From Chloroflexota bacterium (GTDB taxonomy: Bacteria; Chloroflexota; Limnocylindria; Limnocylindrales; CSP1-4): a DNA stretch of 64,000 bases. The notes beneath the pieces were generated by a model. It was not told the DNA's origin. It worked only from the letters and a program-made list of their open reading frames with translations, and ran no database searches. The position numbers were made by a program, and so were the translations under genes. How positions within the stretch are numbered: the stretch's first letter is position 1; the number at the start of each line of letters is the position of its first letter. Of the stretch, positions 3-34,600 are shown one piece after another. Location: positions 6,126-70,125 of the forward strand of contig JACQEG010000019.1 of NCBI GenBank assembly GCA_016200665.1. Direction: 5' to 3'.

Positions 3-2189
<2,187 letters not shown>

Positions 2190-2193
<4 letters not shown>

Positions 2194-3203: not shown

Positions 3204-3237
3204 CCGCGCCTGCCACCACCGAGCCTGAGGACGCCTC

Positions 3238-5817
3238 GTGACCGACGCCAACCTCGGCGACATCCGCGCGATCCGCATCGAGGACGAGATGCGGACGTCG
3301 TACCTCGACTACGCGATGAGCGTCATCGTGGCGAGGGCGCTGCCGGACGTCCGTGACGGTCTCAAGCCCGTCCACCGCCGGATCCTCTACACGATGGGCG
3401 AGATGGGGCTCTCGTCCACGAGCTCCTTCCGCAAGTGCGCCGCGATCGTCGGCGAGGTCATGGGCAAGTACCACCCGCACGGCGACGTGGCCCTGTACGA
3501 CGCCCTCGTCCGGCTGGCCCAGGACTTCTCGATGCGCTATCCGCTCGTGAACGGTCAGGGCAACTTCGGCTCCGTCGACGGCGATGCCCCGGCGGCGATG
3601 CGCTACACGGAGGCCCGCCTCACCGCCCTCGCCTCCGAGATGCTCGCGGACATCGACAAGGAGACCGTCGACTTCGTCGACAACTACGACGGCACGCAGA
3701 AGGAGCCGACGGTCCTCCCGGCGAAGCTCCCGAACCTGCTCGTGAACGGCAGCTCGGGGATCGCCGTCGGGATGGCGACGAACATCCCGCCGCACCATCT
3801 CGGCGAGGTCGTCGACGCGACGATCGCCCTGATCGACGACCCGGAGCTCACCGCCGACGAGCTCTGCCAGTACGTCACCGGCCCCGACTTCCCGACTGGC
3901 GGCACGATCTTCCGCTACGAGCGCCAGCGCAACTCGATCTCCGGCGAGTGGGAGACCGTCGACGCGATCCGCCAGATGTACGCCCACGGCCGCGGCCGGG
4001 TCGTCATGCGGGCGCAGGTGGCGTTCGAGGAGGTCAAGGGCGATCGCGTCGCGATCATCGTCACCGAGCTGCCCTACCAGGTGAACAAGGCGACCCTCCT
4101 CGAGAAGATCGCCGAGCTCGTCAAGGACAAGAAGATCGACGGCATCGCCGACCTGCGGGACGAGTCGGACCGCGACGGCATGCGGATGTACGTCGAGATC
4201 AAGCGCGACGCCAACCCGCACAAGGTCCTGAACAACCTCTTCAAGCACACGACGCTCCAGGCCGCGTTCAACATGAACATGCTGGCCCTCGTCGACGGCC
4301 AGCCCCAGACGCTGCCCCTGAAGTCGGTCCTCCAGCACTACGTCGACCACCGCCGCGAGATCGTCCGGCGGCGGACCGAGTACGACCTCGAGCGGGCGCG
4401 CGAGCGGGCCCACATCCTCGAGGGCCTCAAGATCGCCCTCGATCACCTCGACGAGGTCATCAAGACCATCCGCGAGTCGGCCGACGTCGAGCGGGCCAAG
4501 GCCAACCTCATGAGTCGCTTCGACCTGTCGGAGCGCCAGGCCCAGGCGATCCTGGACATGCGCCTCGCCCGCCTGGCGGCCCTCGAGCGCAAGAAGATCG
4601 AGGACGAGTACCTCGAGGTCATCCAGCTCATCGCCGAGCTCGAGGACATCCTCGCCAACGTGGCCCGGGTCCTGTCGATCATCAAGGACGAGCTCCGCGA
4701 GCTGAAGAAGAAGTACGCCGGCGACCGCCGGACCCGCGTCGCCGAGGACTCCAGTCGCGAGCTCACCGACGAGGACCTCATCGCCGACGAGGACGTCGTC
4801 ATCACGATCAGCGGCCGGGGCTACATCAAGCGCCAGCCGGTCGCGACGTACCGCCGCCAGGCGCGCGGCGGCAAGGGGATCATCGGCCACGTCACCCGCG
4901 AGGAGGACGCCGTCGAGCATCTCCTCGTCGCCAACACCCACGACTGGGCGCTGTTCTTCACGAACCGCGGCCGGGTGTTCTCGGCGAAGGTCCACGCCAT
5001 CCCCGACGCGTCGCGCCAGGCCAAGGGCCTGCCGATCATCAACATGCCGGGCGTCCAGGTGGACGCCGGCGAGGTCCCGATGGCCACGATCACGCTGCCG
5101 GCCTTCGCCGCGGGCAGCTACCTCGTCATGGCCACGAAGCAGGGCCGGATCAAGAAGACGCCACTCGAGCAGTTCGAGCGGGTCCGCTCGACGGGGATCC
5201 GGGCGATCACGATCGACGAGGACGACGAGCTGGCCTGGGTCGACGTCTCGTCCGGCGAGGACGACGTCATCATCGCCACGGCCCAGGGCATGCTCGCCCG
5301 ATTCCACGAGAGCGAGGTCCGGGCGATGGGCCGAGACGCCGCCGGCGTCATCGGCATCCGCCTCCGCCGGGTCGGCGACGCGGTCGTGTCGATGAGCGTC
5401 GTCCAGCCGACGGCCGAGCTCCTGGTCCTCACCGAGACCGGCTACGGCAAGCGCGTGCCGATGACCGAGTTCCGACCGAAGCACCGGGGCGGCCAGGGCG
5501 TCCGGCTCATCGCCCTCGAGGGTCGCAAGACCGGCGTCGTCGCCGCGGTCCAGCAGGTCGACGATCGGGACGAGGAGCTCGTCCTCATCTCGGCCCACGG
5601 CCAGGTCGTCCGGACCGACGTCCGCACGGTCAGCCGCCAGCACGCGGCGGCGCGCGGAGTCATCGTCATGCGCCTCAACGAGGGCGATCGCGTCGTCGGA
5701 ATCGCGGCATTCCGTCCGGGGCTGGCGGAAGCCCTCGCCAGCGACGACAATGACGGCCCGGAGGCGGGACCCGGTGGCGGATCCGGGAACCGCAGCGGTC
5801 CGGGGCCCGGCGCGTGA
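3238..5817 (+). CDS. gyrA: DNA gyrase subunit A
   Basis: GTG start at 3238. The N-terminus is [38 protein letters not shown], with the active-site region [10 protein letters not shown] and C-terminal beta-pinwheel repeats. The protein is 859 aa with a Gly/Pro-rich tail. Confidence 0.97.
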
Positions 5818-17578: not shown

Positions 17579-18043
17579 ATGCCCGCCGAGAAGACGATCG
17601 CCCTCAACCGCCGCGCACGCCACGAGTTCTCGATCGAAGACACGATCGAGGCCGGCATCGTGCTGACCGGGACCGAGATCAAGTCGATCCGGGCGAACAA
17701 GGTCAACCTGGCCGATGCGTACGCCCGCATCGACCGCGGCGAGGCCTGGCTCGTCGGCGCGCACATCGCGCCGTGGGACGCCGGCAACCGCTACAACCAC
17801 GAGCCCCGTCGCGACCGCAAGCTGCTGCTGCACAAGTCCCAGATCGACGAGCTGCTCGGAAAGACGAAGTCGAAGGGCCTCGTGCTCATCGCGCTCCGGC
17901 TCTACATCGACAACCGGGGCAAGGCGAAGCTGGAGCTGGGACTCGGCAAGGGCAAGCAGCTCCATGATCGCCGGCGCGACATCGCGGCCCGCGACGCCCA
18001 GCGCCAGATGGAGCGCGACCTCGCCGAGGCGACCCGCCGCTAG
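17579..18043 (+). CDS. smpB: SsrA-binding protein SmpB
   Basis: 154 aa. Motifs seen are NRRARHEFSIEDTIEAGIVLTGTEIKSIR and RKLLLHKSQIDEL. TGTAGCCT (-10-like) ends 9 nt before the ATG. Confidence 0.95.
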   Translation: MPAEKTIALNRRARHEFSIEDTIEAGIVLTGTEIKSIRANKVNLADAYARIDRGEAWLVGAHIAPWDAGNRYNHEPRRDRKLLLHKSQIDELLGKTKSKGLVLIALRLYIDNRGKAKLELGLGKGKQLHDRRRDIAARDAQRQMERDLAEATRR

Positions 18044-18055
18044 CTGGGATTCGAG

Positions 18056-19636
18056 CTAGCGAAGCAGGTAGCGGCGGCTCAGCGGGACCTCGTCCACCGG
18101 GTCGACCGCGAGGCGGCGGCCGGCGAGGGTCACCGTGCCGTCGATCGGGCTGACCTCGACCGGCGCGGTGGCGCGGTTGCGGGTCAGCGAGGCGCGGGTC
18201 AGCCCGCGGCAGCCGGCGACAGGGATCAGGGTCCGCGTCGTGTCGAGGTGCCGGCGGAGGGCGTCGAGGTCGGCCGACGCGGAGACGAACGTGACTGCGA
18301 CCGAGCGGGCCGAGTGGGGGAGGCCGGCCCAGTCCGGGGCGTAGCGCGTCGGCTCCGCGCTCCGAACCGACGCGTTGCCCTCGCCGAGCGGCGCCCAGGC
18401 CTGGTGGCCGCCCTTGATGACGGCGGCGGGCTTCACGCCGAAATAGCCGGGCCTCCACAGGACGATGTCGGCCAGGTGGCCCGTCGTCAGGGTGCCGACC
18501 AGGTCCGAGATGCCATGGGTGATCGCGGGCTCGATCGTGACCTTTGCGAGATAGCGCAGCACCCGCTCGTTGTCGTCTGGACCGGCCTCCGAACCCGGCT
18601 CCGCGCCGGCGGCCGCGCCCGGGACAGCCCCATGGCCGTCGGCGGGCAGGCCCGGGTGGCCACGGCCATCGGCGGTCGCCCGCCAGGCCTTCATGACGTG
18701 AGCCAGCTGGAAGGCTCGCCGGACCGTCTCCATGATCCGGCCCATCCCCTGCGAGTCCGAGTTGACGATCTGGATCGCGCCGAGCTCGTGGAGCGGCCCC
18801 TCGGCTGCCATCGTCGCGGGGTGGAGGCGCTCGCGGACGAGCGCCATGTCCTCCGGGATCGTGAACGTGCCGCCGTGGGTCACGACCGTCATCGGGATCG
18901 CCTCGTCGCCGGCCGACCGTCCGAACGGGATCGTCGGCGTCGTCGATGAGCAGATGACGTTCGCCTCGCGGACGAGGCCGATGAGGTCGGGCACGTGCCC
19001 GCCGCCCGATCCCTCCACGTGGTACGCGTGGACCGTCCGGCCCGCGATCGCGGCGACCGTGTCCTCGAGCTCGGCGCTCTCGTGGAGGCCATCGGTGTGG
19101 AGGCTCACGGACACGTCGTGGGCGTCGGCGTACCGGAGCGTCGCGTCGATCAGCTCCGGGTAGGCGCCGTAGATCGTCGTGACGCCCGCCGACAGCGCCG
19201 CCGGCATGAGATTCGGCGAGATCGTGTGGACGTGGGTGTCGACTGCTCCAGGCGTCGCGATCAGGCCGTAGCCGGCGATGCGTGTGGTGTGCGGCCCGAT
19301 GAGCAGATCGATGCCGTCGCTGATCTCCGGGTTGCCGGCGCGCCCGACGCCGGCGATCCGGCCGTCCTTGACGCCGATGTCGGCCTTGAGGATCCCGAGC
19401 ACGGGGTCGACCACGATGGCGCCCACGATGACGAGGTCGAGCTCCGATGGGCCCGCGCTCGAGGCCTGGGTCATCCCGAGGCGAAGGTTCTTGGCGTAAC
19501 CCCAGATCGGCTCGTCGCCGACGGCCTGGCGATCCTCCTCGACCCGGATCCAGAGATCCGTGTCACCGAGCCGGATGTGGTCGCCGACGCCCGGACCGAA
19601 CCGGGCGAGCCGCTCGCGCTGGGCCAGGCGCGTCAC
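18056..19636 (-). CDS. Urease alpha-subunit homologue with an in-frame loss of the carbamyl-lysine segment (possibly inactive or re-purposed)
   Basis: GTG 19636 forms a GTGA overlap with the upstream stop. The N-terminus FGPGVGDHIRLGDTDLW, plus THVH, LHTD, HVEGSGGGHVPD and NSDSQGMGR, align to UreC. Only 45 residues separate the HxH motif from the next ligand His, versus about 112 in canonical UreC recalled from memory, and that segment contains no Lys. Confidence 0.85.
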   Translation of the reverse strand: MTRLAQRERLARFGPGVGDHIRLGDTDLWIRVEEDRQAVGDEPIWGYAKNLRLGMTQASSAGPSELDLVIVGAIVVDPVLGILKADIGVKDGRIAGVGRAGNPEISDGIDLLIGPHTTRIAGYGLIATPGAVDTHVHTISPNLMPAALSAGVTTIYGAYPELIDATLRYADAHDVSVSLHTDGLHESAELEDTVAAIAGRTVHAYHVEGSGGGHVPDLIGLVREANVICSSTTPTIPFGRSAGDEAIPMTVVTHGGTFTIPEDMALVRERLHPATMAAEGPLHELGAIQIVNSDSQGMGRIMETVRRAFQLAHVMKAWRATADGRGHPGLPADGHGAVPGAAAGAEPGSEAGPDDNERVLRYLAKVTIEPAITHGISDLVGTLTTGHLADIVLWRPGYFGVKPAAVIKGGHQAWAPLGEGNASVRSAEPTRYAPDWAGLPHSARSVAVTFVSASADLDALRRHLDTTRTLIPVAGCRGLTRASLTRNRATAPVEVSPIDGTVTLAGRRLAVDPVDEVPLSRRYLLR

Positions 19637-20283
19637 GAGCCGCCGTCCGACGGCCCGCGACCTGCCGGGGCGCCCGCCGGCCCGCCACCCGATGGCCCGC
19701 GGTAGCGGACGAGCGCCACCGTCTTCGATTCGCCGGGAGCCCAACGCTCCGAGGACCCGGCGGGGAGGTCGAGCCGAAAGCCCGCCACCCCGGCGCGATC
19801 GAACCGAAGTCGGGCGTTGACCCGATCGAATGGAAAATGCGAGGAGATCCGGACGGCGCGACCCGAGGTGTTCTCGACGAGGAGCGTCCGGCGCTCCAGA
19901 TCGGCGGTGGCGTCGGGCGGCTCCTCGACCGCCGGCCTGATCGCCCCGGGCCCTGGCTCCGCGGCGGGCGCCGATCCGGGTCCGCCGAGCGGATCGACGA
20001 GGACGATCAAGCGAACGCCGTCGTCGAGCAGAACCTCGAGGCGAATTTCGCCCACGAGCTCCCGGATGCCCGGCATGACGTCCGCCTGGTCGACGGCCGC
20101 TCGCCCCGCATCCTCGACCTCGGCATAGGTCCGGCCGGCACGAGCTGCCTCCAGCATCGCGTCGCAGATGAGCGCGACCGCCTCCGGCGCGTTCAGCCGC
20201 AGGCCGGCCGCGCGATGCCGTCGCGCCAGCTCGGCGGCCGTGAAGATGAGGAGCCGTTCCTCTTCCCAGGGGGTCAGCAGCAC
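19633..20283 (-). CDS. Urease gamma-beta fusion protein (UreA-UreB)
   Basis: GTG 20283. The N-terminal half is LTPWEEERLLIFTAAELARRH...GVRLIVLVDP (UreA-like). A Pro/Gly linker follows, then LVENTSGRAVRISSHFPFDRVNARLRFDR...FRLDLPAGSSERWAPGE (UreB-like). Confidence 0.85.
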   Translation of the reverse strand: MLLTPWEEERLLIFTAAELARRHRAAGLRLNAPEAVALICDAMLEAARAGRTYAEVEDAGRAAVDQADVMPGIRELVGEIRLEVLLDDGVRLIVLVDPLGGPGSAPAAEPGPGAIRPAVEEPPDATADLERRTLLVENTSGRAVRISSHFPFDRVNARLRFDRAGVAGFRLDLPAGSSERWAPGESKTVALVRYRGPSGGGPAGAPAGRGPSDGGS

Positions 20284-20308
20284 CCGCGCATCCTAGCGGG
20301 CGAGGAGC

Positions 20309-21271
20309 TCAGGTCGCGGCGCCCACCAGCCCGCCCGTCCTGGCACCCAACGGGCCACCGCGACCAGCGGCCGTGACGATCGTGCCGGCTTCGCCGCGGA
20401 GCATTCGCGCCGCGTCGGCGAGCGAGCCGATCGCGGCGAACCCCCCGTCGGAGCGGACGAACCGGCAGGCCGCCTCCACCTTGGGGCCCATCGAGCCCGG
20501 CGCGAAGGTGCGGGCCGCGAGCTCGTCCGGCGTCGCCTCCCGGATCGGGCGAGCCTCCGGCGTGTCCCAGCCGTCGTACGCGGCATCGACGTCGGTCAGC
20601 ATGAGGAAGGCGTCGGCCTTGAGCGACCGCGCGAGGAGCGCGCCCGCGAAGTCCTTGTCGATGACCGCCTCGATCCCGACGTAGCCGCCGTCATCGATGG
20701 CGACCACCGGGATGCCGCCGCCGCCGGCGCAGACGACGATGACCTTGGCCCGGACGAGGAGCTCGATGACGCCGATCTCAAGGATGTCCGTCGGCTGGGG
20801 CGACGGGACGACCCGCCGCCACTTCGCGCCATCGGGCGCGATCGACCAGCCCTTCTCGGCGGCGTGGCGCTCGGCCTCCTCGCGGTCATAGACCGGCCCG
20901 ATCGGCTTGGTCGGGTGGCTGAAGGCCGGGTCGTGGGGCGAGACGGCGATTCGGGTGAGCAGCGTCGCGAGCGGGCGTCCCGCGGGCAGCAGGTTGCCGA
21001 GCTCCTGCTCGAGGAGGTAGCCGATCATCCCCTCCGTCTCGGCGTCGAGGATGTCAAGCGGGTACTCCTCGTCGGGCTTGTAGGCCGCGTTCTGGAGCGA
21101 CAGCAGCCCGACCTGGGGGCCGTTGCCGTGGGTCAGCACGAGATCGTGCTCGAGCGCGATCGGCAGGAGCGCCCGGGCCGCGACCGCGATGTTCGCCCGC
21201 TGGTTCTCGGCGGTCATCGGCTCGCCGCGGCGGAGGAGCGCGTTGCCGCCGAGCGCGGCGACGACCCGCAT
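20309..21271 (-). CDS. arcC: Carbamate kinase
   Basis: Motifs seen are [29 protein letters not shown] and [13 protein letters not shown]. Its ATG shares one base with the OTC stop (TGATG). Confidence 0.9.
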
Positions 21272-22296
21272 CAGTCGAGTCCCCCGCGGGTGAGCGTCGC
21301 CACGAGGACCGCCTTGATCGTGTGCATCCGGTTCTCGGCCTCATCGAACACGATCGACGCCGCCGACTCGAAGACCTCGTCGGTGACCTCCATCGAGGTC
21401 AGGCCGTGGCGCTCGAACATCTTCGCCCCGACCTCGGTCTGGAGGTCGTGGAACGCCGGCAGGCAGTGGAGGAACTTGACGTCCGGATTGCCCGTCGCGA
21501 GGAGCATCGCCGCGTCGACCTGGTACGGCCGCAGGAGCGCGACTCGCTCGTCCCAGGTGGCCTCGGGCTCGCCCATCGAGACCCACACGTCCGTGTAGAT
21601 GGCGTCCACGCCACGGACGCCGTCCGGGATCGAATCGGTGACCGTGATGCGGGCGCCGCTGCCGGCCGCTATGCCGCGAGCCATCTGGAGGAAGTCCGGC
21701 CGCGGCCAGACCGCCTGCGGCGCGACGATCCGGAGGTCCATGCCCATGGTCGCGCAGCCGAGGAGCAGCTCGTCGCCCATGTTGCCGCGGGCGTCGCCGA
21801 CATAGGCGAGGGCCATCTGGGAGAGCGGCTTCGCGACGTGCTCGCGCAGCGTCAGGAAGTCGGCGAGGACCTGGGTCGGGTGGTCCTCGTCGGTCAGGCC
21901 GTTGTAGACCGGCACGCCGGACCAGGTCGCGAGCGCCTCGACGTCCGCCTGGTGGAAGCCCCGGAACTCGATCGCGTCGTAGACCCGGCCCAGCACGCGG
22001 GCGGTGTCCTTCACGGACTCCTTCTTGCCGATGTGGCTGCCGGTCGGACCGAGATAGGTCACGTGGGCGCCCTGGTCGTACGCGGCGACCTCGAACCCGA
22101 TCCGGGTCCGGGTCGAGTCCTTCTCGAAGATCAGGGCGATCGAGCGGCCGACCAGCCGCCGCAGCTCACGGCGCTCGCGCTTCTCGGCCTTGAGCCGCGC
22201 GGCGAGGTCGAGCAGCGCCTGGATCTCGGTGGCATTGAAGTCGCGCAATGAAAGGAAGGACCGACCGAACAGGTCGGTACCGAGGTGGACAGCCAT
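21271..22296 (-). CDS. arcB: Ornithine carbamoyltransferase (anabolic versus catabolic role not resolvable from sequence)
   Basis: ATG 22296 has GGGAG 8 nt upstream. Motifs seen are STRTR, HPTQ, DVWVSMG and [10 protein letters not shown]. The long upstream extension in the ORF track is rejected. Confidence 0.92.
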
Positions 22297-22445: not shown

Positions 22446-22865
22446 TCAGCCGAACGCGTCGGGCGGGAGCTCGCCGATGCCCGCGGCCGCTCGAATGAGC
22501 CGCTCCGCGACCTTCTCGTCGATCTCCTCGACCGAGGTGTACGTCAGCCAGCGCGCCCGCTTCGTGATCCCTTCGCCGTCCATGAGCCGATCCTGATCCG
22601 CGATGAGGACCCCCTGCGGGAAGCCGAGGTGGACATGCTGGCGCTCGGGGAACACCCAGGCGAAGAACGGCGATCGGCGACCCTTCGGCAGGTCGAAGCC
22701 GATGACCCGCCAGCCGACCCGAACCCGCTCCGTCGCCTCCGGAATCGTGCGATGGATGAGCGATCGGAGGTGGTTGGCGATCGCGCGGTGCTTCGGCGAG
22801 TAGCCCTCGAGAAACGCCTCGACGGGCAGGCTGGGAGCTCGGTCCACGGGACGCCGGGAGGGCAT
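22446..22865 (-). CDS. DUF1801 (YdhG-like) domain protein
   Basis: 139 aa with high GC3. The pattern [20 protein letters not shown]...HVHLGFPQG is typical of DUF1801. The assignment is from memory. Confidence 0.7.
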
Positions 22866-22908: not shown

Positions 22909-23279
22909 GGGGATGCGTGGTCTCGACAGGGTCTGGCTGTCGGCGGACGCGAGCCGAGGTGCCGTCAGGCCTCGCTAAACAGGCGGCAAATCGAAGTACC
23001 TGCCAACAAGCAGTCGACTCTCGCCCTCGCGGCTTAGGCCGTAAGGTGAGCGTGGAAGCAGCCTCCGCCTCGCGGGCTGTGGAAGCGTCATGCAGCGGGG
23101 CTGCGGCCCGGGCAAGGCCACGTAGCCTGGGATCAAGCTCGATCTAGAGACACGTGAATGGATCTCGTCGGAGGGTGCCGATCCTCGCCCCGAGATCGAC
23201 GACAACGATCGGACACGCTCGTAGTGGCTGCCGTCGAAGGGCTCTGGACGGGGAGTTCGACTCTCCCCCATCTCCACCA
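22909..23279 (+). ncRNA. ssrA: tmRNA (SsrA), proposed tag ANKQSTLALAA
   Basis: The 5' GGGGATG pairs with the 3' CATCTCC-ACCA, including the G3:U wobble. The T-arm is GGACGGGGAGTTCGACTCTCCCCC. The tag reading frame is GCC AAC AAG CAG TCG ACT CTC GCC CTC GCG GCT TAG at 23002-23037. Confidence 0.92.
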
Positions 23280-24801: not shown

Positions 24802-26091
24802 ATGGAACCGCTGAGCAAGGCGACCCTCCGCGAGACCCGCGAGCACAACGAGCGGCTCGTCCTGGCCACGATCTACGACGGCGCCCCGGACGGAACGCCG
24901 GTGAGCCGCGCCGACGCGGCTCGCCTGACGGGCCTCACCCGCACGACGGTCTCCGCGGTCGTCGACATGCTGCTTGCCGCCGGCCTCGTCCGCGAGATCG
25001 GCCGAGGCCCCTCGACCGGGGGCAAGGCCCCGATCCAGCTCGCGGTGCCGGATGCGTCGCGGGTCCTGATCGGCGTCGACCTGGGCGATCGCGAGTTCAC
25101 CGCCGCCGCGGTCAACCTCCGGGGCGAGATCCTCCATCGCGCCGAGGTCCCGTCGGAGGACGCCGACGGCGCCGAGGCGGTGGAGCTCGCGCTCGGTCTC
25201 ATCGCCCAGATCCTCGGCGCGGTCGATGGCCGGGTCCTCGGGATCGGGATCGGCGCGCCGGGCCTCGTCGACACGACCGACGGCACGGTCGTCCAGTCGG
25301 TCAAGCGCAGCTGGCGGGAGCTGCCGCTCGGCGCCATCGTCGCCGCCCGCTTCGGGCTCCCGGTCTACGTCGCCAACGACAGCCAGGCGGCGGCCCTCGC
25401 CGAGCACGTCTTCGGCGCCGCGCGAGCGCAGAACCTCATCGGGATCAAGGTCGGCGAGGGCATCGGCGCGGGCATCGTCCTCAACGGGGCCCTCTTCCAG
25501 GGCGACGGCTTCGGGGCTGGCGAGATCGGCCACACCGTCGTCGACCCGATGGGCGATCGCTGCCGCTGCGGCCGGACCGGCTGCCTCGAGACCCTCGCCT
25601 CCGTGCCGGCCCTGCTCGGTCGCCTCCAGGCCGAGCTGGGCCGGCCGATCAGCCTTGGCGAGGCGGTCATGGCCGCGGAGCGTGGCGACCCGACGGTCCT
25701 GGCTGCGGTCTCCGAGGCCGGTCGCCATCTCGGCCAGGCGGTGGCCGGGCTCATCGGCGCCCTGCACGTCCGCCGAATCGTCCTGGCGGGCCCGATGGCC
25801 GCGTTCGGCGAGCCGTGGCTCGCGGCGGTCCGCACGGCTGCGCAGGCCGGCGCCCTCGCATCCCTCGCCGGCGACACCACCATCGAGCTCGGCGGCATCG
25901 ATCACATCGTCGTGCTCGGTGCCTCGGCCCTGCTGATGACGCGGGAGCTCGGCTTGAGCCTCCGCCCCATCCATCCCCCACGGCGCGGTTCGTCGCTCGA
26001 GCGTGGCCTCGAGCCGGCGGCCCCGCCGTCACGGGCGCGCACCGGTACCCCGGTGCCGCTGGGCGCCCAGAGAGGAGGCGGAGGGGTCTGA
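24802..26091 (+). CDS. ROK-family transcriptional regulator (NagC/XylR-like)
   Basis: The protein has an N-terminal winged HTH (SRADAARLTGLTRTTVSAVVDMLLAAGLV), an ROK sugar-kinase fold (GIGIGAPGLVD) and the zinc motif GHTVVDPMGDRCRCGRTGCLE. Confidence 0.85.
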   Translation: MEPLSKATLRETREHNERLVLATIYDGAPDGTPVSRADAARLTGLTRTTVSAVVDMLLAAGLVREIGRGPSTGGKAPIQLAVPDASRVLIGVDLGDREFTAAAVNLRGEILHRAEVPSEDADGAEAVELALGLIAQILGAVDGRVLGIGIGAPGLVDTTDGTVVQSVKRSWRELPLGAIVAARFGLPVYVANDSQAAALAEHVFGAARAQNLIGIKVGEGIGAGIVLNGALFQGDGFGAGEIGHTVVDPMGDRCRCGRTGCLETLASVPALLGRLQAELGRPISLGEAVMAAERGDPTVLAAVSEAGRHLGQAVAGLIGALHVRRIVLAGPMAAFGEPWLAAVRTAAQAGALASLAGDTTIELGGIDHIVVLGASALLMTRELGLSLRPIHPPRRGSSLERGLEPAAPPSRARTGTPVPLGAQRGGGGV

Positions 26092-26166
26092 ACGAGTCAT
26101 CCGCGCAACAAGAGCGCTCCGCGCTCGCAGTGGACGTGGCGTCCCGCACCTGAGGAGAGCACCGAG

Positions 26167-27537
26167 TTGATCAGGCACAAGATGATCCCGCTGGTGGCGG
26201 TTGCCATGGTCGCGCTGACCGGCTGCAACGGCGCCAGCACCACCCCGTCGCAGCCCGCCGGCTCGCAACCGGCGACCCAGACGAGCCAGCCGAGCGCCCA
26301 GACGAGCGGCACCCTGACCGTCTGGATGATGAACGGCTCGCTGAACGACAACACCGTCGTCCAGCTCAACACCGACTTCCAGATGTCGCATCCCGGATGG
26401 AAGGTCAACTACCAGGTCCAGCAGTGGAACGGCATCGTCGACAAGCTGACGACCGCGCTGGCCAGCAACACGCCCCCCGACGTCGTCGAGATGGGCAACA
26501 CCCAGGCGATCACCTTCGAGGCCGCCGGGGCCCTCGCCGACCTGACGAGCTCTCGCCAGGCGCTCGGCGGCGGCACGACCAACGACAGCTCGAGCGCCGA
26601 CCAGCTCTTCGTGGCGTCGCTGAACAGCGCCTCGGTCTACCAGGACAAGCTGTACGCGCTGCCGTTCTACGCCGGCGACCGCGTCCTGATCTATCGCAAG
26701 GACCTGTTCACGGCGGCCGGGATCGATCCGGCGTCGATCACGAGCAAGGACAAGCTCATCACCGCGGCGAAGACCCTCAACACGAAGAACGCCTCGGTTG
26801 CTGACTTCTCCGGCTTCTACCAGGCCGGCCAGAACTGGTACTCGCTGCTCCAGATGATCTGGGATCGCGGCGGCTCGCTCGCGACCCAGGGCAGCGACGG
26901 CAAGTGGACCGCCAACCTCGACTCGCCCGAGTCGATGGCCGGCATCCAGGACTACGTCGACTACTACAACAGCGGCTCGACCGGTCCCAAGGACAACGAC
27001 GAGATGAACCCGCCCGAGTACGACCTGTTCCACCAGGGCAAGGTCGGGATGTTCGTCGGTAACGGCTGGGAGATCGGCAGCGCCATCGGCACCGACGGGA
27101 AGCTCACCGCCGACCAGGTCGGCGTCATGGCCATCCCGAGCGCGACCGACGGCAAGACCGTCCCGGTGTTCCTCGGCGGCTCGGTCCTGGGCATCGCGGC
27201 CAAGAGCCCGAACCAGGCAGCGGCCCTCGACTACCTCAAGCAGCTCGCCAGCGACTCCGGCCAGCAGGCGCTCATCGCCAACGGCTGGATCCCGTCCCTG
27301 AAGTCGGCTGCGGCGGCCATCCCGGACAAGCCGGAGACCGCGATCCTGAAGGTCCAGGCGGCCGAGGCGGCTGCCGGAAGCGGCTTCACGCCGAACGACC
27401 CGCGCTGGGCCGGCGTCGAGGCCAACAATCCCATCAAGGCCATGCTCACCAAGATCCTGACGGGCCAGGCCAGCATCGCCGATGCTGCCAAGGCGGCGGA
27501 CGACGCCATCGAAGCCGTCATGAACGCGGCCCAGTAG
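26167..27537 (+). CDS. ABC sugar transporter substrate-binding lipoprotein
   Basis: TTG 26167 has GAGGAG 9 nt upstream; ATG 26182 is an alternative. The lipobox is ALTGC. The family-1 SBP layout is present (GTLTVWMMNG, PDVVEMGNTQ). Confidence 0.9.
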   Translation: MIRHKMIPLVAVAMVALTGCNGASTTPSQPAGSQPATQTSQPSAQTSGTLTVWMMNGSLNDNTVVQLNTDFQMSHPGWKVNYQVQQWNGIVDKLTTALASNTPPDVVEMGNTQAITFEAAGALADLTSSRQALGGGTTNDSSSADQLFVASLNSASVYQDKLYALPFYAGDRVLIYRKDLFTAAGIDPASITSKDKLITAAKTLNTKNASVADFSGFYQAGQNWYSLLQMIWDRGGSLATQGSDGKWTANLDSPESMAGIQDYVDYYNSGSTGPKDNDEMNPPEYDLFHQGKVGMFVGNGWEIGSAIGTDGKLTADQVGVMAIPSATDGKTVPVFLGGSVLGIAAKSPNQAAALDYLKQLASDSGQQALIANGWIPSLKSAAAAIPDKPETAILKVQAAEAAAGSGFTPNDPRWAGVEANNPIKAMLTKILTGQASIADAAKAADDAIEAVMNAAQ

Positions 27538-27585
27538 GAACGAACCTGCTCCTCCACTGACGACGCTCGAGAGGGGGCACCCAGC

Positions 27586-28566
27586 GTGATCGGGTCGACG
27601 ACCAGGGCGAAAGCCCGGCGCGACGCACCCGGCCTCGCGGGGGTCCCCTCTCGACGTCGGTCGCGCCTCTCGCGGCTCGCCGGCCAGAGCCTGCCCTACG
27701 TGGCGCTCCTGCCGGCCCTCGTCACCTTCGTCCTGCTCCTCGGCTACCCGGTGCTGCTCGTCATCGAGATGAGCCTCCAGCACATCGGGCTCAGGGAGCT
27801 CATCAGCGGGGCCACCACGTGGGTGGGCCTCGACAACTTCGCGGCGATCCTCGCCGACAGGCAGTTCGTGGCCGTCACGATCCGAACGTTCGTGTTCATG
27901 GCCGTGAACGTGGCGCTGACCGTCGTCCTCGGTACGCTCGTGGCGCTGCTGCTGGACCGGATCGCCCGGATCCCACGGCTGATCCTGTCGGCCGCGATGG
28001 TCCTCGCCTGGGCGATGCCGGCCCTGACCGGCAGCGTCGTCTTCCAGTGGCTGTTCGACAGCAAGCTCGGGGTCGTGAACTGGGCCCTGAGCAGCGTCGG
28101 GATCTTCGGCTCGTGGCTGAACCACTCGTGGTTCGACACGGGCCTCTCGACCTTCGGGATCATCACCCTGCTCATCGTGTGGCAGGCGATCCCGTTCGTC
28201 GCGTTCAGCCTCTATGGCGGGATCCTGGCGATCCCCCACGAGCTCACCGAGGCCGCGAAGGTCGACGGCGCGAGCGACCGCCAGGTCTTCCGGCACGTGA
28301 TCCTGCCCGGGCTGCGGCCGCTGCTCATGATGCTGGCGTTCCTGTCGATCATCTGGGACTTCAAGGTCTTCACGCAGGTGTTCACGATCCGGCAGGGCGG
28401 GCCGGACGGCCAGACGATCACGCTCTCGATCTTTGCCTACATCACCGGCCTGAGCCAGAGCCGGTTCGGGATCGCGGCGGCCGTGTCGGTCGTCATGGTC
28501 GTGCTCCTGCTGCTCGTCCTCATCCCGTACATCCGGCGGATGCTGCGGACCCAGGAGGACGTGTGA
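27586..28566 (+). CDS. ABC sugar transporter permease (MalF/UgpA-like)
   Basis: GTG 27586. The protein has six TM segments and the EAA-type loop ELTEAAKVDGASDRQVFRHVILPGLRP. Confidence 0.9.
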   Translation: MIGSTTRAKARRDAPGLAGVPSRRRSRLSRLAGQSLPYVALLPALVTFVLLLGYPVLLVIEMSLQHIGLRELISGATTWVGLDNFAAILADRQFVAVTIRTFVFMAVNVALTVVLGTLVALLLDRIARIPRLILSAAMVLAWAMPALTGSVVFQWLFDSKLGVVNWALSSVGIFGSWLNHSWFDTGLSTFGIITLLIVWQAIPFVAFSLYGGILAIPHELTEAAKVDGASDRQVFRHVILPGLRPLLMMLAFLSIIWDFKVFTQVFTIRQGGPDGQTITLSIFAYITGLSQSRFGIAAAVSVVMVVLLLLVLIPYIRRMLRTQEDV

Positions 28567-29396
28567 TGCCGGGCACGACACGGGCCCGGCGCTGGCTCCT
28601 CAACGGGGTCGCGCTGCTCGCGGCGCTGGTCTTCGCCTTCCCCGTCTACTGGATGTTCGTCACCGCGTTCAAGCCGGCCGACCAGATCCAGACCTACGTC
28701 CCGGTCTTCCTGCCGAGCCCGACGCTCGACAACTTCATCAAGGCGATCAACGTCCCGCATTTCACCGACTTCCTGCGCAACAGCCTGCTCATCGCCGGCA
28801 CGACGCTCGGGCTGGCGCTCGTCGTCGGGTTCCTGACGGCGGTGACCCTCGCCCGCGCCAAGGTCCGCGGCCGGAAGGGCTTCCTGCTCCTCGTCGCGAT
28901 CGCCCAGATGGCGCCGTTCGAAGCGCTCCTGATCCCGTTCTTCCTGGTCATGCGCGACACCGGGCTCTACAACCAGATGCCGTCGCTCGTGATCGTGTAC
29001 TTCATCTTCACGCTGCCGTTCACGATCTGGTCGCTGCGCGGCTTCATCGCCGGGATCCCGGTCGACCTCGAGGAATCGGCGATGGTCGACGGCTGCTCGC
29101 GGCTCGGGGCGTTCGTGCGGGTGACGCTGCCGCTCCTGGGGCCGGGCCTCGTCGCGACGGCGATCTTCTGCTTCATCACCGCCTGGAACGAGTACTTCTA
29201 CGCGTTCGTGTTCATGACCGACGTCCAGAACTACACGCTGCCCGTCTGGCTGGCCTCGTTCCGGACGAACTTCGGGACGGACTGGGGCGCCACGATGGCC
29301 GCGTCCACGCTCTTCACGCTGCCGGTGCTGGTGTTCTTCCTCGCGGTCCAGGGCCGGATGGTCGGCGGCCTGACGACCGGCGCGGTGAAGGGATGA
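28566..29396 (+). CDS. ABC sugar transporter permease (MalG/UgpE-like)
   Basis: The ATG forms an ATGA-type overlap with the upstream stop. The EAA-type loop is DLEESAMVDGCSRLGAFVRVTLPLLGP. Confidence 0.9.
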   Translation: MPGTTRARRWLLNGVALLAALVFAFPVYWMFVTAFKPADQIQTYVPVFLPSPTLDNFIKAINVPHFTDFLRNSLLIAGTTLGLALVVGFLTAVTLARAKVRGRKGFLLLVAIAQMAPFEALLIPFFLVMRDTGLYNQMPSLVIVYFIFTLPFTIWSLRGFIAGIPVDLEESAMVDGCSRLGAFVRVTLPLLGPGLVATAIFCFITAWNEYFYAFVFMTDVQNYTLPVWLASFRTNFGTDWGATMAASTLFTLPVLVFFLAVQGRMVGGLTTGAVKG

Positions 29397-31000
29397 CGAG
29401 CGCCATGACCACGAGGCGCGAGGGGGCCGCGGCTCTCGACCTCGCGGGCTGCCGGGTCCTGCGGACGTTCGTGGGCCTCGAGCCCACGCCGGAGGTGCTG
29501 GCCGCGATCCAGCGCGGCGACGCCTCCGGGGTGACGCTCTTCCGTCACAAGAACGTCGGCTCGCCCGAGCAGCTGCGCGAGCTATGCGCGCGACTGCAGG
29601 ACGCGCGACCGGCGGGCGACCCGCCGCTCATCATCGGGCTCGACCAGGAGGGCGGCCAGCTCCAGGCCGTCGGCGATCCGGCGACGGCGTGGCCGGGCAA
29701 CCTGGCCCTCGGCGCGACCGGCTCGGCGGCCCTCGCGGAGGCGACCGGGCGGGCGATCGGCCTCGAGGCAGCGGCGCTCGGCGCCAACCTCGTCTTCGCG
29801 CCCGTGTGCGACGTCCTCCAGCCGGCGTCGGCCAGCCCGCTCGGGACGCGGCCGTTCGGCTCGGATCCGGCGCTCGTCGGTCGACTCGCGGCGGCGATGG
29901 TGCGCGGCCTCCAGGGGGCCAGCGTCGCCGCGGTGCTCAAGCACTTCCCGGGCCACGGATCCGCCGTCGGCGATTCGCACGCCGCGATGCCGGTCGTGCG
30001 CGACGACGCCGCGACCGTCCGGGCCCGCGATCTCGCGCCGTTTCGCGACGGGATCGCGGCGGGCGTGAAGGCGGTCCTGCCGGGTCACCTCGCGGTACCC
30101 GCCCTCACCGACGGGGAGCCGATCGCGGCCACGGTCTCGCGCCAGCTCCTGGGAGCGCTCCTCCGCGGCGAGCTCGGCTTCGGTGGCGTCACGATCAGCG
30201 ACGCACTCGACATGGGCGGTGCGGGGACGGCCGGGCACCTGGATGCCCAGGCGCTCGCGGCGGTCGCGGCCGGCATGGACCTGCTGCTGCTCGTCCACCC
30301 GGCCACGCTCGAGGACAGCGTCGTGGACGCCATCCGCACGGCGCGCGCCGGCGGGGCCCTGGACCCGGCCGATGCCACCGCGGCGCGGGCGCGCATCCAC
30401 GCCCTGCGGACCTGGCTGGGCGAGATCGAGCAGCCGGGCCTCGAGGTCGTGGGTTGCAAGGCTCACCTGGCGCTCGCGCGCCGGATCGCGGAGGCTTCCG
30501 TGACCCTGGTCCGGGATCCCGCGGGGCTGCTGCCCGTGCTCGCCGCCGGCGCGGGCTCGCGCATCGCCCTCGTCGCGCCCGTCCCGGTCGACCTGACACC
30601 GGCCGAGACCTCGTCCTACGTGCAGCTCGGTCTCGCGGACGCCCTCCGGCGCCGAGGCCTGGACGTCTCCGAGATCGTCGCCCCGCTCGACCCGACAGCG
30701 GGTCAGGTCGCGGCGCTCCTGGACGCCAGCCGCGATGCGGACCTCGTCCTGGTGGCGACGTTCGATGCCGTCTCGCATCCGGGACAGGCCGCGTTGGCAC
30801 GGGCCTTCGCGGCCACCGCGCGGCCGGCGATCGCCATCGCGCTGCGCAGCCCGTACGACGTGGCCCTCTTCGGCCCGGCGCTGACCGCGATCTGCACGTA
30901 CGGGATCCAGGCGCCGCAGATGGACGCGCTTGCCGCCGGGCTCGTCGGCGAGATTCGGTTCGCGGGCCGGCCGCCGGTCAACCTGGCGGCCGGGTCGTGA
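29393..31000 (+). CDS. Glycoside hydrolase family 3 (beta-N-acetylhexosaminidase/beta-glucosidase-like)
   Basis: ATGA overlap with the upstream gene. Motifs seen are GLDQEGG, KHFPGHG and ISDALDMGG. The 535 aa protein has a C-terminal alpha/beta domain. Confidence 0.88.
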   Translation: MTSAMTTRREGAAALDLAGCRVLRTFVGLEPTPEVLAAIQRGDASGVTLFRHKNVGSPEQLRELCARLQDARPAGDPPLIIGLDQEGGQLQAVGDPATAWPGNLALGATGSAALAEATGRAIGLEAAALGANLVFAPVCDVLQPASASPLGTRPFGSDPALVGRLAAAMVRGLQGASVAAVLKHFPGHGSAVGDSHAAMPVVRDDAATVRARDLAPFRDGIAAGVKAVLPGHLAVPALTDGEPIAATVSRQLLGALLRGELGFGGVTISDALDMGGAGTAGHLDAQALAAVAAGMDLLLLVHPATLEDSVVDAIRTARAGGALDPADATAARARIHALRTWLGEIEQPGLEVVGCKAHLALARRIAEASVTLVRDPAGLLPVLAAGAGSRIALVAPVPVDLTPAETSSYVQLGLADALRRRGLDVSEIVAPLDPTAGQVAALLDASRDADLVLVATFDAVSHPGQAALARAFAATARPAIAIALRSPYDVALFGPALTAICTYGIQAPQMDALAAGLVGEIRFAGRPPVNLAAGS

Positions 31001-32025
31001 GCCTCAGAATCGAGCTCGGCGAGAGTCCCGCCGTCGTCGAGCGCCTGCTCGATGCCGCGGCGGAGCCGATCGAGCGCGTCGCGCAGGCCGTCCGGGCGCG
31101 GGCCATCGACCTCGCGGTCATCGCGGCCCGCGGCACCTCGGATCACGCGGCCGTGTACGCCCAGTACATCCTCGGGGCGCGGAACGGGATGGTCGTCGCG
31201 CCGGCGACGCCCTCGCTGTCGTCGCTCTACGACGCGCCACCGCACCTGGCTCGCGCCCTGGTCCTCGGGATCTCGCAATCCGGCCGGTCGCCCGATGTCG
31301 TGTCGGTGCTGGCCGATGCGCGACGCCAGGGCGCCCTGACCGTCGCGGTGACGAACGAGCCCGACTCGGAGCTGGCTGGAGCAGCGGAGTTCGTCATCGA
31401 GCTGGGCGCCGGCCCCGAGCTCGCGGTCGCCGCGACGAAGACGTACATCGCCGAGGTCGGCGTCGTCGCCATGCTCTCGGCCGCCCTGTCCGGCGACGCA
31501 GAGTCGGCGAAGCAGCTCCGTGCCGCACCCGCGGCCATGCGCGCGGCGCTCGATCAGGAGTCACGCGTCAAGCGCCTGGCCGCCAGCCGCGCCCGCATCG
31601 AGGAGTGCGTCGTCCTCGCCCGCGGGTTCCAGTACGCGACGGCGCGCGAATGGGCGCTCAAGCTCAAGGAGCTGACCCGCGTCCTCGCCGATCCCTATTC
31701 CGGCGCTGACTTCCAGCACGGGCCGATCGCCCTCGTCGAGCCGGGCTTTCCGGTGCTCGCCGTGGCGAGCGCGGGTCCCGCGCTGGCGGGAATGCTCGAG
31801 CTGCTCGGCCGGCTGCGCGACCGAGGCGGCGAGATCCTCACGGTCTCGGACGACGCGACGATCCTGGCGATGGGCGACGGGGTCCCGTTGCCGCTCATGC
31901 CCGAATGGCTGTCGCCGCTCGCGGCGATCATCCCGGCCCAGCTGTTCGCCTACCACCTGGCGGTGGCGAAGGGCCTGGATCCGGATGCGCCGCCGAACCT
32001 CACGAAAGTGACACGGACCCTGTGA
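30997..32025 (+). CDS. Double-SIS-domain sugar-phosphate isomerase/deaminase (GlmS-C/NagB-II/FrlB-like)
   Basis: GTGA overlap with the upstream gene. Motifs seen are GISQSGRSPD and VAVTNEPDSELA, plus a second SIS half with the C-terminal PPNLTKVTRT. Confidence 0.8.
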   Translation: MSLRIELGESPAVVERLLDAAAEPIERVAQAVRARAIDLAVIAARGTSDHAAVYAQYILGARNGMVVAPATPSLSSLYDAPPHLARALVLGISQSGRSPDVVSVLADARRQGALTVAVTNEPDSELAGAAEFVIELGAGPELAVAATKTYIAEVGVVAMLSAALSGDAESAKQLRAAPAAMRAALDQESRVKRLAASRARIEECVVLARGFQYATAREWALKLKELTRVLADPYSGADFQHGPIALVEPGFPVLAVASAGPALAGMLELLGRLRDRGGEILTVSDDATILAMGDGVPLPLMPEWLSPLAAIIPAQLFAYHLAVAKGLDPDAPPNLTKVTRTL

Positions 32026-33188
32026 TCCGCCTCGCCGGCCACCTGTACGCACCGGATGACCGCGGCCTCGCCCTCGTGACCGTCGACGACGGCACGGTCG
32101 CCGCCATCGAGCCCCTGGACCCGGCCGTGCCGCTGCCGGCGGGCACGATCGGCGGACCGGCCTCGCGCCTCCTGCCCGGGCTCGTCGACATCCAGGTCAA
32201 CGGCGCGTTCGGCCACGACTTCGCCGATCCGGCGGCGGACATGGCGATGATCTGCCGCCGGCTGCCCGAGCTCGGCGTGACTGCCTTCGTGCCGACGATC
32301 GTCACGTCGCCTCCGGCCGCCTACGCCCCGGCGCTCGCCAACCTTCGGCGCCCACCCCTGCCCGGGGAGGCGCGGGTGCTCGGGGTGCACATCGAGGGGC
32401 CGTTCATCAGCTCGGCTCACCCCGGCACGCACGACCCGGCCCTGATCCGGCCGCCGGACGTGGGCGAGGCCGCGGCCTGGCTGGCGACGGGCGACGTCAG
32501 GTGGCTGACCCTGGCCCCGGAGCTGCCCGGCGCCCTGGGCCTCGTGCGGTTCCTGGCGGACCGGGGTGTCCGCGTCTCGATGGGCCACACCGATGCCACG
32601 TGGGCCGACGCCGAGGCCGCGGTCGGCGCCGGGACCTCGCTCGTCACCCACCTCTTCAACGCCATGCGGCCGCTCCGCCACCGCGACCCCGGCGTCGCCG
32701 GCTACGCGCTGGCGTCGAGCCTTCCGGTCGGCGTCATCGGCGACGGCCACCACCTGGCCTTCGAGACGCTCCGCCTGATCGCCCGGGTCAAGGCCCCCGA
32801 CGAGCTGTACCTCGTGACCGACGCGCTGGCAGGGCTCGGCATGCCGCCCGGCCGCTACTCGCTCGCGGGCCGGGAGTACGTCTCCGACGGCACCTGCGGC
32901 CGGCTGCCCGACGGGACCCTGTCGGGATCGCTGCTGTCGCTGCCGCTCGCGATCCGGAACCTCGTGGAGGAGGTCGGCCTGGACCCGGCGCTGGCCATCC
33001 GGATGGCGACGCTCAACCCGGCGCGGGCCCTCGACCTCGGGACCGACCTCGGGCGCATCGAGCCCGGCCGGACCGCGAACCTGGTCGTCGTCGACGACGC
33101 GTGGGCGGTCCAGGCGACGGTCGCCGGGGGCGCGCTCGCCTTCGACGCGGCGCGACGAGCGGCGTCCCCCGTTCGGACCGAGCCGTGA
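32022..33188 (+). CDS. nagA: N-acetylglucosamine-6-phosphate deacetylase
   Basis: GTGA overlap with the upstream gene. Amidohydrolase motifs seen are PGLVDIQVNGAFGHDF, GVHIEGPF, SMGHTDAT, THLFNAM and LVTDA. Confidence 0.85.
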   Translation: MIRLAGHLYAPDDRGLALVTVDDGTVAAIEPLDPAVPLPAGTIGGPASRLLPGLVDIQVNGAFGHDFADPAADMAMICRRLPELGVTAFVPTIVTSPPAAYAPALANLRRPPLPGEARVLGVHIEGPFISSAHPGTHDPALIRPPDVGEAAAWLATGDVRWLTLAPELPGALGLVRFLADRGVRVSMGHTDATWADAEAAVGAGTSLVTHLFNAMRPLRHRDPGVAGYALASSLPVGVIGDGHHLAFETLRLIARVKAPDELYLVTDALAGLGMPPGRYSLAGREYVSDGTCGRLPDGTLSGSLLSLPLAIRNLVEEVGLDPALAIRMATLNPARALDLGTDLGRIEPGRTANLVVVDDAWAVQATVAGGALAFDAARRAASPVRTEP

Positions 33189-34600
33189 CCGCCGCGGGCA
33201 TCGCACCCGCTCCCGTGACGCCGCGCGTCCGTCCACCGCTCGATCCCGACTTCCAGCCGATCGCCCTCGCCCGCCGGGCGATGCTCGAGGCCGCGCGGAC
33301 CGACGGTCGCGCCGTGCCGGTGGCGCTGGCGCTGGAGCAGCCGGGCGGTGCGGTCGACGTCCGCGAGACACTCGTCATCCCGGCCGGGCGTCGTGGCGCG
33401 GCACTGAGCCGGGTGCTCTGCGAGCGACTCGCGAAGGCGATGCTCTGGTCACGCGGCGGCTCGCGCCTGTGGGTCGACGGGCCGGCGGACCTCGTCGCCG
33501 GGCTCCGGCGCCACTACGCGATGACATCGGTCGGTCGGTTCGACGCGGCCACGATCGGCGAGGCCGTGTACGCCGTGCCGCTCGAGGTCGTCGCGGCGCC
33601 GCGGGCCGAGTTCCCAACCAACCGCGATGCGGGGTCCGTGCTCGGCGGGCACCTCGACGGCTGCCGGATCGGCTTCGACCTCGGGGCGAGCGATCGCAAG
33701 GCGGCGGCGGTCCTCGACGGCCGCGTCGTGTTCAGCGAGGAGGTCGCGTGGGATCCGGCGCGGCAGGCCGACCCGCAATGGCACGTCGACCAGATCCAGG
33801 ACTCGCTGCGGCGGGCCGCCGCGCACCTGCCCCGGGTCGACGCCATCGGCGGCAGCTCGGCGGGGATCTACGTCGACAGCGCGGTCCGGGTCGCCTCGCT
33901 GTTCCGCTCCGTCCCGCCCGAGCTGTTCCGCAGCCGCGTGGCCGGCATCTTCCGCGAGCTCCGGGTGGCGTGGGGCGGCATCCCGTTCGTCGTGATCAAC
34001 GACGGCGAGGTGACCGCGCTCGCGGGCGCGATGCTCGCCGGGGTGGGCGGCCTGCTCGGGATCGCGATGGGCTCGTCCGAGGCGGCCGGGTACGTCCGGT
34101 CGGACGGCCGGCTCACGCCATGGCTCAACGAGCTGGCCTTCGTCCCGATCGACGTCGGAGCGGGGGCGGCGATCGACGACTGGTCGGGCGACCGCGGCTG
34201 CGGCGGCCAGTACCTCTCGCAGCAGGCGACGGGCCGGCTGCTTGGCCCGGCCGGCATCGAGGTCGCGGACGCGATGCCATTGCCCGAGCGCCTGATCCAG
34301 CTCCAGCAGCTGATGGCGTCGGGCGACGAGCGAGCCGCTCGCGTCTACCAGACGGTCGGCACGTACCTCGGCTACGCGCTCATCGAGTACCACGAGCTCT
34401 ACGACTTCGACCACCTGCTGCTGCTCGGCCGGGTCACGACGGGCGGCGGTGGCCAGCTCATCGAAGAGCGGGCGATCGAGGTCCTCCGGGCCGAGGCGCC
34501 GGCAATCGCCGCCGCGTTGACCTTCCACCGCGTGTCCGAGCGCGACAAGCGTCACGGCCAGGCCGTTGCGGCTGCGAGCCTGCCGTCGCTCGCCGGGTAG
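33185..34600 (+). CDS. ROK/ASKHA-type sugar kinase-like protein with a ~150-aa N-terminal extension
   Basis: GTGA overlap with the upstream gene. The kinase core is IGFDLGASDRKAAAV...GGSSAGIYV...VINDGEVTALAG...GIAMGSSEAAG. It lacks the classical ROK CXCGXXGC zinc motif. Confidence 0.7.
   Translation: MTAAGIAPAPVTPRVRPPLDPDFQPIALARRAMLEAARTDGRAVPVALALEQPGGAVDVRETLVIPAGRRGAALSRVLCERLAKAMLWSRGGSRLWVDGPADLVAGLRRHYAMTSVGRFDAATIGEAVYAVPLEVVAAPRAEFPTNRDAGSVLGGHLDGCRIGFDLGASDRKAAAVLDGRVVFSEEVAWDPARQADPQWHVDQIQDSLRRAAAHLPRVDAIGGSSAGIYVDSAVRVASLFRSVPPELFRSRVAGIFRELRVAWGGIPFVVINDGEVTALAGAMLAGVGGLLGIAMGSSEAAGYVRSDGRLTPWLNELAFVPIDVGAGAAIDDWSGDRGCGGQYLSQQATGRLLGPAGIEVADAMPLPERLIQLQQLMASGDERAARVYQTVGTYLGYALIEYHELYDFDHLLLLGRVTTGGGGQLIEERAIEVLRAEAPAIAAALTFHRVSERDKRHGQAVAAASLPSLAG

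Follow-up and report, generated by a model that had tools for sequence, protein, structure and literature searches.

Does a urease alpha subunit that has lost its carbamylated lysine represent a new kind of enzyme, or a broken one? The question is raised by a 64,000-nucleotide stretch of a contig from a soil Chloroflexota of the class Limnocylindria (JACQEG010000019.1, assembly GCA_016200665.1; hereafter the window), in which positions 18056-22296 of the minus strand hold four coupled genes. In order, they encode an ornithine carbamoyltransferase (OTC), a carbamate kinase (CK), a fusion of the urease subunits UreA and UreB (UreAB) and a homologue of the alpha subunit, UreC. Our comparison of this locus with its relatives indicates that the window ureC is probably a null allele, disabled by a 168-bp deletion that is private to the window, and that the gene belongs to an orphan type of urease which is so far uncharacterised.

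The primary structure of the window UreC was compared with those of ureases in the PDB. In the alignment with Helicobacter pylori UreB, residues 1-159 matched residues 1-160, and the alignment resumed at about residue 224, skipping the carbamylated lysine (KCX219). Residues equivalent to about 160-222 of canonical urease, Lys217 included, are absent, and the carbamyl-Lys motif GxKxHED does not occur in the protein. An initial annotation of this DNA had drawn attention to a short, Lys-less stretch between HxH and the next ligand His. The alignment confirmed that the segment is gone and that no Lys is present, but the stretch from HVH to the His of LHTD comprises 42 residues and not 45. All of the remaining ligands (H134, H136, H246, H272 and D360) as well as the catalytic flap His320 are present, within the sequences HVH, LHTD, GGGH, NSDSQ and THGG. 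On the DNA level, alignment with the loci L001 and L002 of two close lineages revealed that the lesion is a single, clean in-frame gap of 168 bp (56 codons) between window positions 19172 and 19171, at which ...ACGATC is followed directly by TACGGCGCC.... The flanks of the junction are colinear with L001 and L002, with 89% nucleotide identity to both; microhomology is at most 1 nt, and there is no flanking repeat. Carbamylated Lys217 was deleted together with the substrate-binding residues His219 and Asp221 (Klebsiella aerogenes numbering).

The missing segment is not a trait of the family but a deletion private to the window. When 5.8 billion proteins were searched, the nearest UreC matches after the window protein itself were P0002 (564 aa) and P0003 (568 aa), both with about 95% amino acid identity to the window UreC in the aligned columns. 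Where the window UreC has nothing, these two proteins carry VSAGFNEPPAAM...LDAGAVGFKIHED, with an intact GAVGFKIHED segment. The contig encoding P0003 (L001) displays the same gene order, DUF1801-OTC-CK-ureAB-ureC-smpB, and its ureC is full-length (568 aa). A scan of one genome per GTDB species gave 285 genomes with a relative; the best 80 of the 285 were looked at, and nearly all of these were metagenome-assembled genomes (MAGs) of Chloroflexota or Limnocylindria/Limnocylindrales, with a few under other phylum labels. We then compared 86 Limnocylindria UreC sequences, the window protein included. His134, His136, His246, His272 and the flap His are kept in all 86, and Lys217, His219 and Asp221 in 85, the exception being the window protein, which is also the shortest of the set (526 aa, against 547-590 aa in the relatives). 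A split gene or a relocated segment was rejected as the origin of the gap, as neither the missing 56 aa nor the 168 nt recur anywhere else in the window, and a second ureC was not found there either. The junction peptide GVTTIYGAYP gave no match in JGI metagenome contigs, a scan that is uninformative because the same collection also lacks a flanking, window-specific 35-mer.

In order to map the deletion onto the fold, AlphaFold2 (AF2) models were built with a 40-sequence multiple sequence alignment of the clade; they are of low to medium confidence and were used for secondary-structure mapping and relative comparison. In the model of intact P0003, the residues deleted in the window (156-211) correspond to the end of strand 2, helix 2, strand 3, helix 3 and strand 4, and are the best-predicted part of the barrel, with a predicted local distance difference test score (pLDDT) of 76-92. 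At the same alignment depth, the deleted window UreC gave a pLDDT of 40.9 and a predicted template modelling score (pTM) of 0.30, compared with 57 and 0.65 for P0003. The window protein still matches Urease_alpha and Amidohydro_1, yet its barrel is without the two helices and two strands named above. The private in-frame deletion would have stripped these elements from the (beta-alpha)8 barrel, and with the bridging Lys and two barrel strands gone, the dinuclear centre presumably cannot form. We infer from the loss of this ligand and of the strands that the product would be a catalytically dead urease. K217 variants of the K. aerogenes enzyme (PDB 1a5k-1a5o) show activity only after chemical rescue. 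Both OTC and CK are intact, and their interconversion of citrulline, carbamoyl phosphate and carbamate/ATP presumably continues.

We next considered the age of the lesion. The dN/dS ratio of ureC between the window and L001 or L002 was 0.06-0.07 (0.07 for L001). When only those changes are counted that occur in one of the three close lineages (window, L001 or L002) and not in the other two, the window branch carries 59.5 synonymous and 5.5 non-synonymous changes, an N/S of 0.09, and the two intact sister branches have N/S values of 0.20 and 0.17. The window ureC contains neither stops nor frameshifts, and relaxed constraint was not seen. A long-dead gene would hold far more non-synonymous changes, which leaves a very recent lesion, an assembly or minor-allele artefact, or continued selection on the truncated protein. 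The last of these is disfavoured by the occurrence of the deletion in 1 of 86 sequences and by the structure, and the lesion is therefore either very young, since the rest of ureC still looks fully constrained, or an artefact of assembly or of a minor allele. The initial annotation had suggested a decaying, in-frame-deleted pseudogene; the in-frame deletion stands, but decay does not agree with a window-branch N/S of 0.09 without stops or frameshifts.

That annotation had also proposed a re-purposed urease-fold protein or non-canonical hydrolase, and this is not supported by the comparison, in which the Lys-less form occurs in the window only, the nearest relatives and the 85 others being intact. 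We regard it as very improbable that the truncated UreC is a functional protein of this kind, kept by selection with a mononuclear metal site or with a non-catalytic or scaffolding role alongside CK and OTC. Such a protein would account for the preserved reading frame, for the intact remaining ligands (HxH, H246, H272, D360 and the flap His) and for the low N/S of the window branch, and the removal of two whole beta-alpha units keeps the beta-alpha alternation. Full-length homologues that are without HxH and the Lys by substitution do exist (P0142, P0167, P0172, P0176 and P0189). The deletion, however, is found in 1 of 86 members of the lineage, and the nearest relatives with an identical operon keep the segment. 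Furthermore, AF2 modelled the deleted form poorly (pTM 0.30), and without two of its strands and without Lys217, His219 and Asp221 the barrel is not closed and the catalytic machinery is gone.

A more serious competitor, although we consider it unlikely, is that the gap arose in assembly or consensus calling, or that it is a minority allele; the dominant genotype of the organism would then have an intact ureC of normal length, and the genome would hold nothing unusual. The deletion is private to one contig and the remainder of ureC is without decay, both as expected of an artefact; the source has the appearance of a metagenome assembly (one 70.5-kb contig), and all of the relatives are MAGs. 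Moreover, the contig of a closer relative, whose CK is 96% identical, breaks inside ureAB, which could reflect strain heterogeneity just downstream. On the other hand, there is no flanking repeat and microhomology does not exceed 1 nt, so that de Bruijn collapse is not an obvious cause. The gap is exactly in frame between clean, colinear flanks, and long-read errors are usually indels of 1-2 nt rather than 168 nt. We consider the deletion to be probably a real allele.

Several points weigh against a null allele by recent deletion. The very low N/S of the window branch also fits a truncated protein under selection. The assembled sequence alone does not distinguish a real deletion from an assembly or consensus artefact. 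AF2 confidence is no measure of stability; both models are mediocre, and the comparison between them is supportive only. A null allele nevertheless accounts best for the locus, and the Lys-less UreC is then a one-off lesion and not a new enzyme class. The window UreC scores above the NCBIfam subfamily cut-off despite the deletion, and automatic annotation still calls it 'urease subunit alpha', a small caution for claims of ureolysis that are based on gene presence in MAGs.

The Gly/Ala/Pro-rich loop of UreC was also examined. The insertion of about 26 aa described in the initial annotation is real; according to the alignments, about 11 of the extra residues (GRGHPGLPADG) are common to the clade, and a further 14-18 aa are private to the window. 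At the DNA level, the window is longer by 42 or 54 nt relative to L001 or L002. A tandem duplication was rejected as the origin of the loop, as Tandem Repeats Finder detects nothing there.

What, then, is the urease that the deletion interrupted? A tblastn examination of 85 related loci (10 kb on either side) revealed that ureAB-ureC lies beside smpB-ctpB almost everywhere, often with DUF1801 immediately upstream. In 11 of the 15 Limnocylindria loci checked, a divergent transfer-messenger RNA (tmRNA) gene is present just past DUF1801, resulting in an ssrA-[DUF1801-ureAB-ureC]-smpB sandwich; the tag encoded by the window tmRNA is ANKQSTLALAA. A genomic island at the tmRNA 3' end was rejected as an explanation, since the ure genes flank ssrA at its 5' (divergent) end, and the same order is seen throughout the class. 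No ureD, ureE, ureF or ureG domain was found in the scanned predicted open reading frames (ORFs) of the 64-kb window. A tblastn search with UreG, a query validated on PDB 5xkt (3e-130), gave no match in the window or within 10 kb on either side of any of the 85 loci. The absence of accessory genes from the window had been noted initially, and both scans agree with it. The initial annotation had further allowed, as an outcome that would speak against its reading, that relatives might carry the same operon with a normal ureC and ureDEFG. The Lys segment is indeed present in the relatives, but ureDEFG are not nearby there either. Taking these loci together, a fused ureAB and a ureC between ssrA and smpB, without accessory genes nearby, make up the usual urease locus of the class Limnocylindria, and in the subclade of the window the arcB-arcC (OTC-CK) pair has come into the same operon.

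Full-length UreC proteins of the clade align end to end with canonical ureases, with E values of about 1e-134 to 1e-137. Like the UreABC nickel ureases of K. aerogenes (2KAU/1FWJ), Sporosarcina pasteurii (4UBP) and H. pylori (1E9Y), they possess HxH, Lys217, His219, Asp221, His246, His272, Asp360 and the flap His. Apart from the segment of about 160-222 that is missing in the window protein alone, the differences from the canonical enzymes concern the whole clade. UreA and UreB are fused, and ureDEFG are not within 10 kb. Eleven residues of the GGGTGPAxGTxATTxTPG loop are absent, a stretch that presumably holds the active-site Ala167/170, whose carbonyl lines the urea pocket, judged by the S. 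pasteurii sequence. CHH is replaced by (T/N/S)HG, and SDSQAMGR by SDSQGMGR. At the Arg336/339 position, Arg is never found in the 86 Limnocylindria sequences, where His (73), Leu (10) or Ile (3) occurs; in the window this is residue 272, encoded at about 18821-18823. Neighbouring non-canonical UreC clusters keep Arg at this position.

Those neighbours came from a profile search of 1.84 billion cluster representatives, in which non-canonical UreC clusters with shortened loops form a gradient; here too, a fused UreAB comes first. Intermediate clusters (P0124-P0134) keep Arg336 and have a longer loop. For the nearest clusters outside Limnocylindria, the context is limited to contigs of 2-3 kb, on which the fused UreAB is visible. 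On one contig with a P0126-type protein (L087, 2723-3373), the gene that comes after ure(AB)C, overlapping it by 4 nt, encodes a glycerate kinase and is not an accessory gene. The same family includes full-length representatives of about 563 aa whose HxH, carbamyl-Lys and further ligands have been lost through substitution (P0142, P0167, P0172, P0176 and P0189; alignment A4); these are natural 'pseudo-urease' lineages, unrelated to the window.

The helper-less, fused ure(AB)C architecture is of a kind already known. Streptomyces coelicolor (SCO5525/5526) and Streptomyces avermitilis harbour ure(AB)C-only clusters without accessory genes (PMC2492869; PMC3293853), in which, as in the window, a fused ureAB precedes ureC. 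In the Streptomyces genomes, a second, complete ureABCFGD cluster is present in addition; the resemblance to Limnocylindria concerns gene arrangement. In the passage of PMC8600894 that cites Kim et al. 2005, Bacillus subtilis ureABC is described as conferring low-level urease activity without UreDEFG. The B. subtilis genes resemble those of the clade in being structural genes only, and differ in that the subunits are separate and there is no link to OTC or CK. The active-site loop of the B. subtilis urease is canonical. In the literature searched, nothing specific was found on Limnocylindria ureases or on urease/CK/OTC operons, and no description was apparent there of the Limnocylindria form, which has a remodelled pocket and a fixed position between ssrA and smpB.

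The result at the level of the lineage is the more useful one: in an abundant class of soil and fresh water, an orphan ure(AB)C is conserved and under strong constraint; the periphery of its active site is remodelled, and there are no maturation genes nearby. A tentative extension, which we think is rather unlikely in its entirety, is that the class-wide Ure(AB)C would be a maturation-independent hydrolase of the urease family, that its metal or substrate range may be altered, given the lack of UreDEFG nearby, the missing Ala167-bearing loop and the His in place of Arg336, that the co-transcribed CK and OTC of the subclade would capture its carbamate, and that the window deletion would be a natural knockout of that system. 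Should the clade enzyme be active, it would join the few ureases whose maturation does not need UreDEFG (B. subtilis, and Helicobacter mustelae UreA2B2), and would matter for the assignment of urea turnover in soils.

Concerning the link to OTC and CK, the pair is adjacent to ureAB in 5 of the 86 UreC loci (the window, L001, L003, L008 and L009), which constitute the closest subclade, and also, according to its gene table only, on the contig encoding P0271. This 4139-bp contig (ENA ERZ27297709) reads DUF4396-DUF1801-OTC-CK-ureAB and ends inside ureAB, so that ureC is not visible; its CK is the closest relative of the window CK seen (96% amino acid identity). In most of the class, DUF1801 is the gene immediately upstream of ureAB, which it abuts in the loci outside the OTC-CK subclade; in the window, OTC-CK intervenes. 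On a 2.2-Mb Limnocylindria contig (L088, 8976-10960), OTC and CK occur as a translationally coupled pair of their own, and arcA and urease genes are absent from the vicinity. Given this narrow adjacency to the ure genes and the separate pair seen elsewhere, OTC-CK is a class-wide module in its own right that entered the urease operon in a single subclade. CK is 80-96% identical overall across the Limnocylindria homologues, and 80-87% in many. Such unusual conservation raises the question whether CK is the carbamoyl phosphate source of the class.

The initial annotation had suggested that urease-derived carbamate is salvaged through CK and OTC. This may hold for the intact relatives, but is weakened by the small number of loci with the adjacency and by the stand-alone pair. 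In such relatives, carbamate from urease would be converted by CK to carbamoyl phosphate and by OTC to citrulline, a chemically attractive, one-ATP route from urea to precursors of arginine or pyrimidines. Translational coupling links the four genes in the window, and their spacing is tight in L001, L003 and L009; urease releases carbamate, the substrate of CK, which is established enzymology. Pyrococcus reportedly channels carbamoyl phosphate, synthesized by a CK-type enzyme, to OTC. We nonetheless find this route doubtful. The adjacency is confined to one small subclade (the five loci and the gene-table contig), and in the rest of the class OTC-CK lies at a distance from the ure genes. A long-type OTC with arcC is the classic catabolic arrangement, and the fact that ureC is broken in the window while OTC and CK stay constrained suggests that the latter are independent of urease. 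The window resembles the arginine deiminase pathway, arcABC(D), in the translational coupling of an arcB-type OTC with the arcC CK. It differs from it, as does the stand-alone pair in L088, in that neither arcA nor an arginine/ornithine antiporter was found there; an arcA domain was present neither in the scanned predicted ORFs of the window nor beside OTC-CK in L003 or L088. The subclade-specific joining of urease genes with OTC-CK provides a testable carbamate-capture hypothesis.

The gene calls are summarized in Table 1. The stop codon of OTC and the start codon of CK share the overlap TGATG; between CK and UreAB there are 25 nt, which include an AGGA motif; and UreAB and UreC overlap in GTGA. 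These are the junctions described initially, and the gene calls together with Pfam and NCBIfam matches confirmed four tightly coupled minus-strand genes. OTC scored 400 bits against TIGR00658 (NCBIfam equivalog, cut-off 281); its translation contains STRTR, SMG and HCLP, and it is 94% identical at the amino acid level to the L001 orthologue. CK scored 380.8 bits against TIGR00746 (NCBIfam equivalog, cut-off 358.25) and 460 bits against PRK12354. In UreAB, Urease_gamma covers residues 1-98 and Urease_beta residues 124-196 (Pfam), and the protein matches the NCBIfam family PRK13192, bifunctional gamma/beta. The UreC translation contains HVH, LHTD, HVEGSGGGH and NSDSQGMGR; the initially reported motifs of OTC (SMG, HCLP) and UreC (HxH, LHTD, HVEG..GGGH, NSDSQGMGR) are thus all found in the translations.

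Table 1. Features of the urease locus and its boundaries (window coordinates).
Feature	Position	Strand	Basis
Ornithine carbamoyltransferase (OTC, arcB/argF-type), 341 aa	21271..22296	-	Pfam OTCace_N and OTCace; TIGR00658; motifs
Carbamate kinase (CK, arcC), 320 aa	20309..21271	-	Pfam AA_kinase; TIGR00746; PRK12354
UreA-UreB (gamma/beta) fusion, 216 aa	19633..20283	-	Pfam Urease_gamma and Urease_beta; PRK13192
UreC (urease alpha) allele with 56-codon in-frame deletion, 526 aa	18056..19636	-	Pfam Urease_alpha and Amidohydro_1
Deletion junction, ..ACGATC joined to TACGGC.. (protein ..GVTTI joined to YGAYPE..)	19171..19172	-	Codon-level DNA alignment with L001 and L002
Gly/Ala/Pro-rich variable surface loop of UreC	18581..18670	-	Alignments A1 and A4
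DUF1801 gene	22446..22847	-	Pfam PF08818; synteny in L004, L005, L006, L010, L011 and others
ssrA (tmRNA), upstream boundary of the cluster	22909..23279	+	ARAGORN; Rfam RF00023, 105.9 bits
smpB, convergent with ureC, downstream boundary of the cluster	17579..18043	+	tblastn synteny; Pfam SmpB in L001, L004 and L005

The rest of the 64-kb window is housekeeping in character, with gyrB/gyrA, secA, prfB, ftsEX, ctpB, dnaA-dnaN-recF-dciA, a GlcNAc-type sugar cluster and glycosyltransferases. A scan for promoters and terminators was uninformative in this DNA of 72% GC. Three ORFs, at 45218-47461 (+), 33215-34600 (+) and 51377-52639 (-), encoding 747, 461 and 420 aa, respectively, had no Pfam match. 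The sugar-utilisation cluster at 24802-33188 consists of a ROK regulator, an ABC solute-binding protein with two permeases, a GH3 hydrolase, a SIS-domain protein and a NagA-like amidohydrolase, and is probably for N-acetylglucosamine oligomers. At 40223-45110 and 3-5817, dnaA-dnaN-recF-dciA, with yidC and a Jag/KhpB-like gene upstream, mark the chromosomal origin region; gyrB/gyrA do not adjoin recF but are about 35 kb distant. The gene at 52912-58293 (+) encodes a protein of 1793 aa that has PMT-type mannosyltransferase domains only in its C-terminal half.

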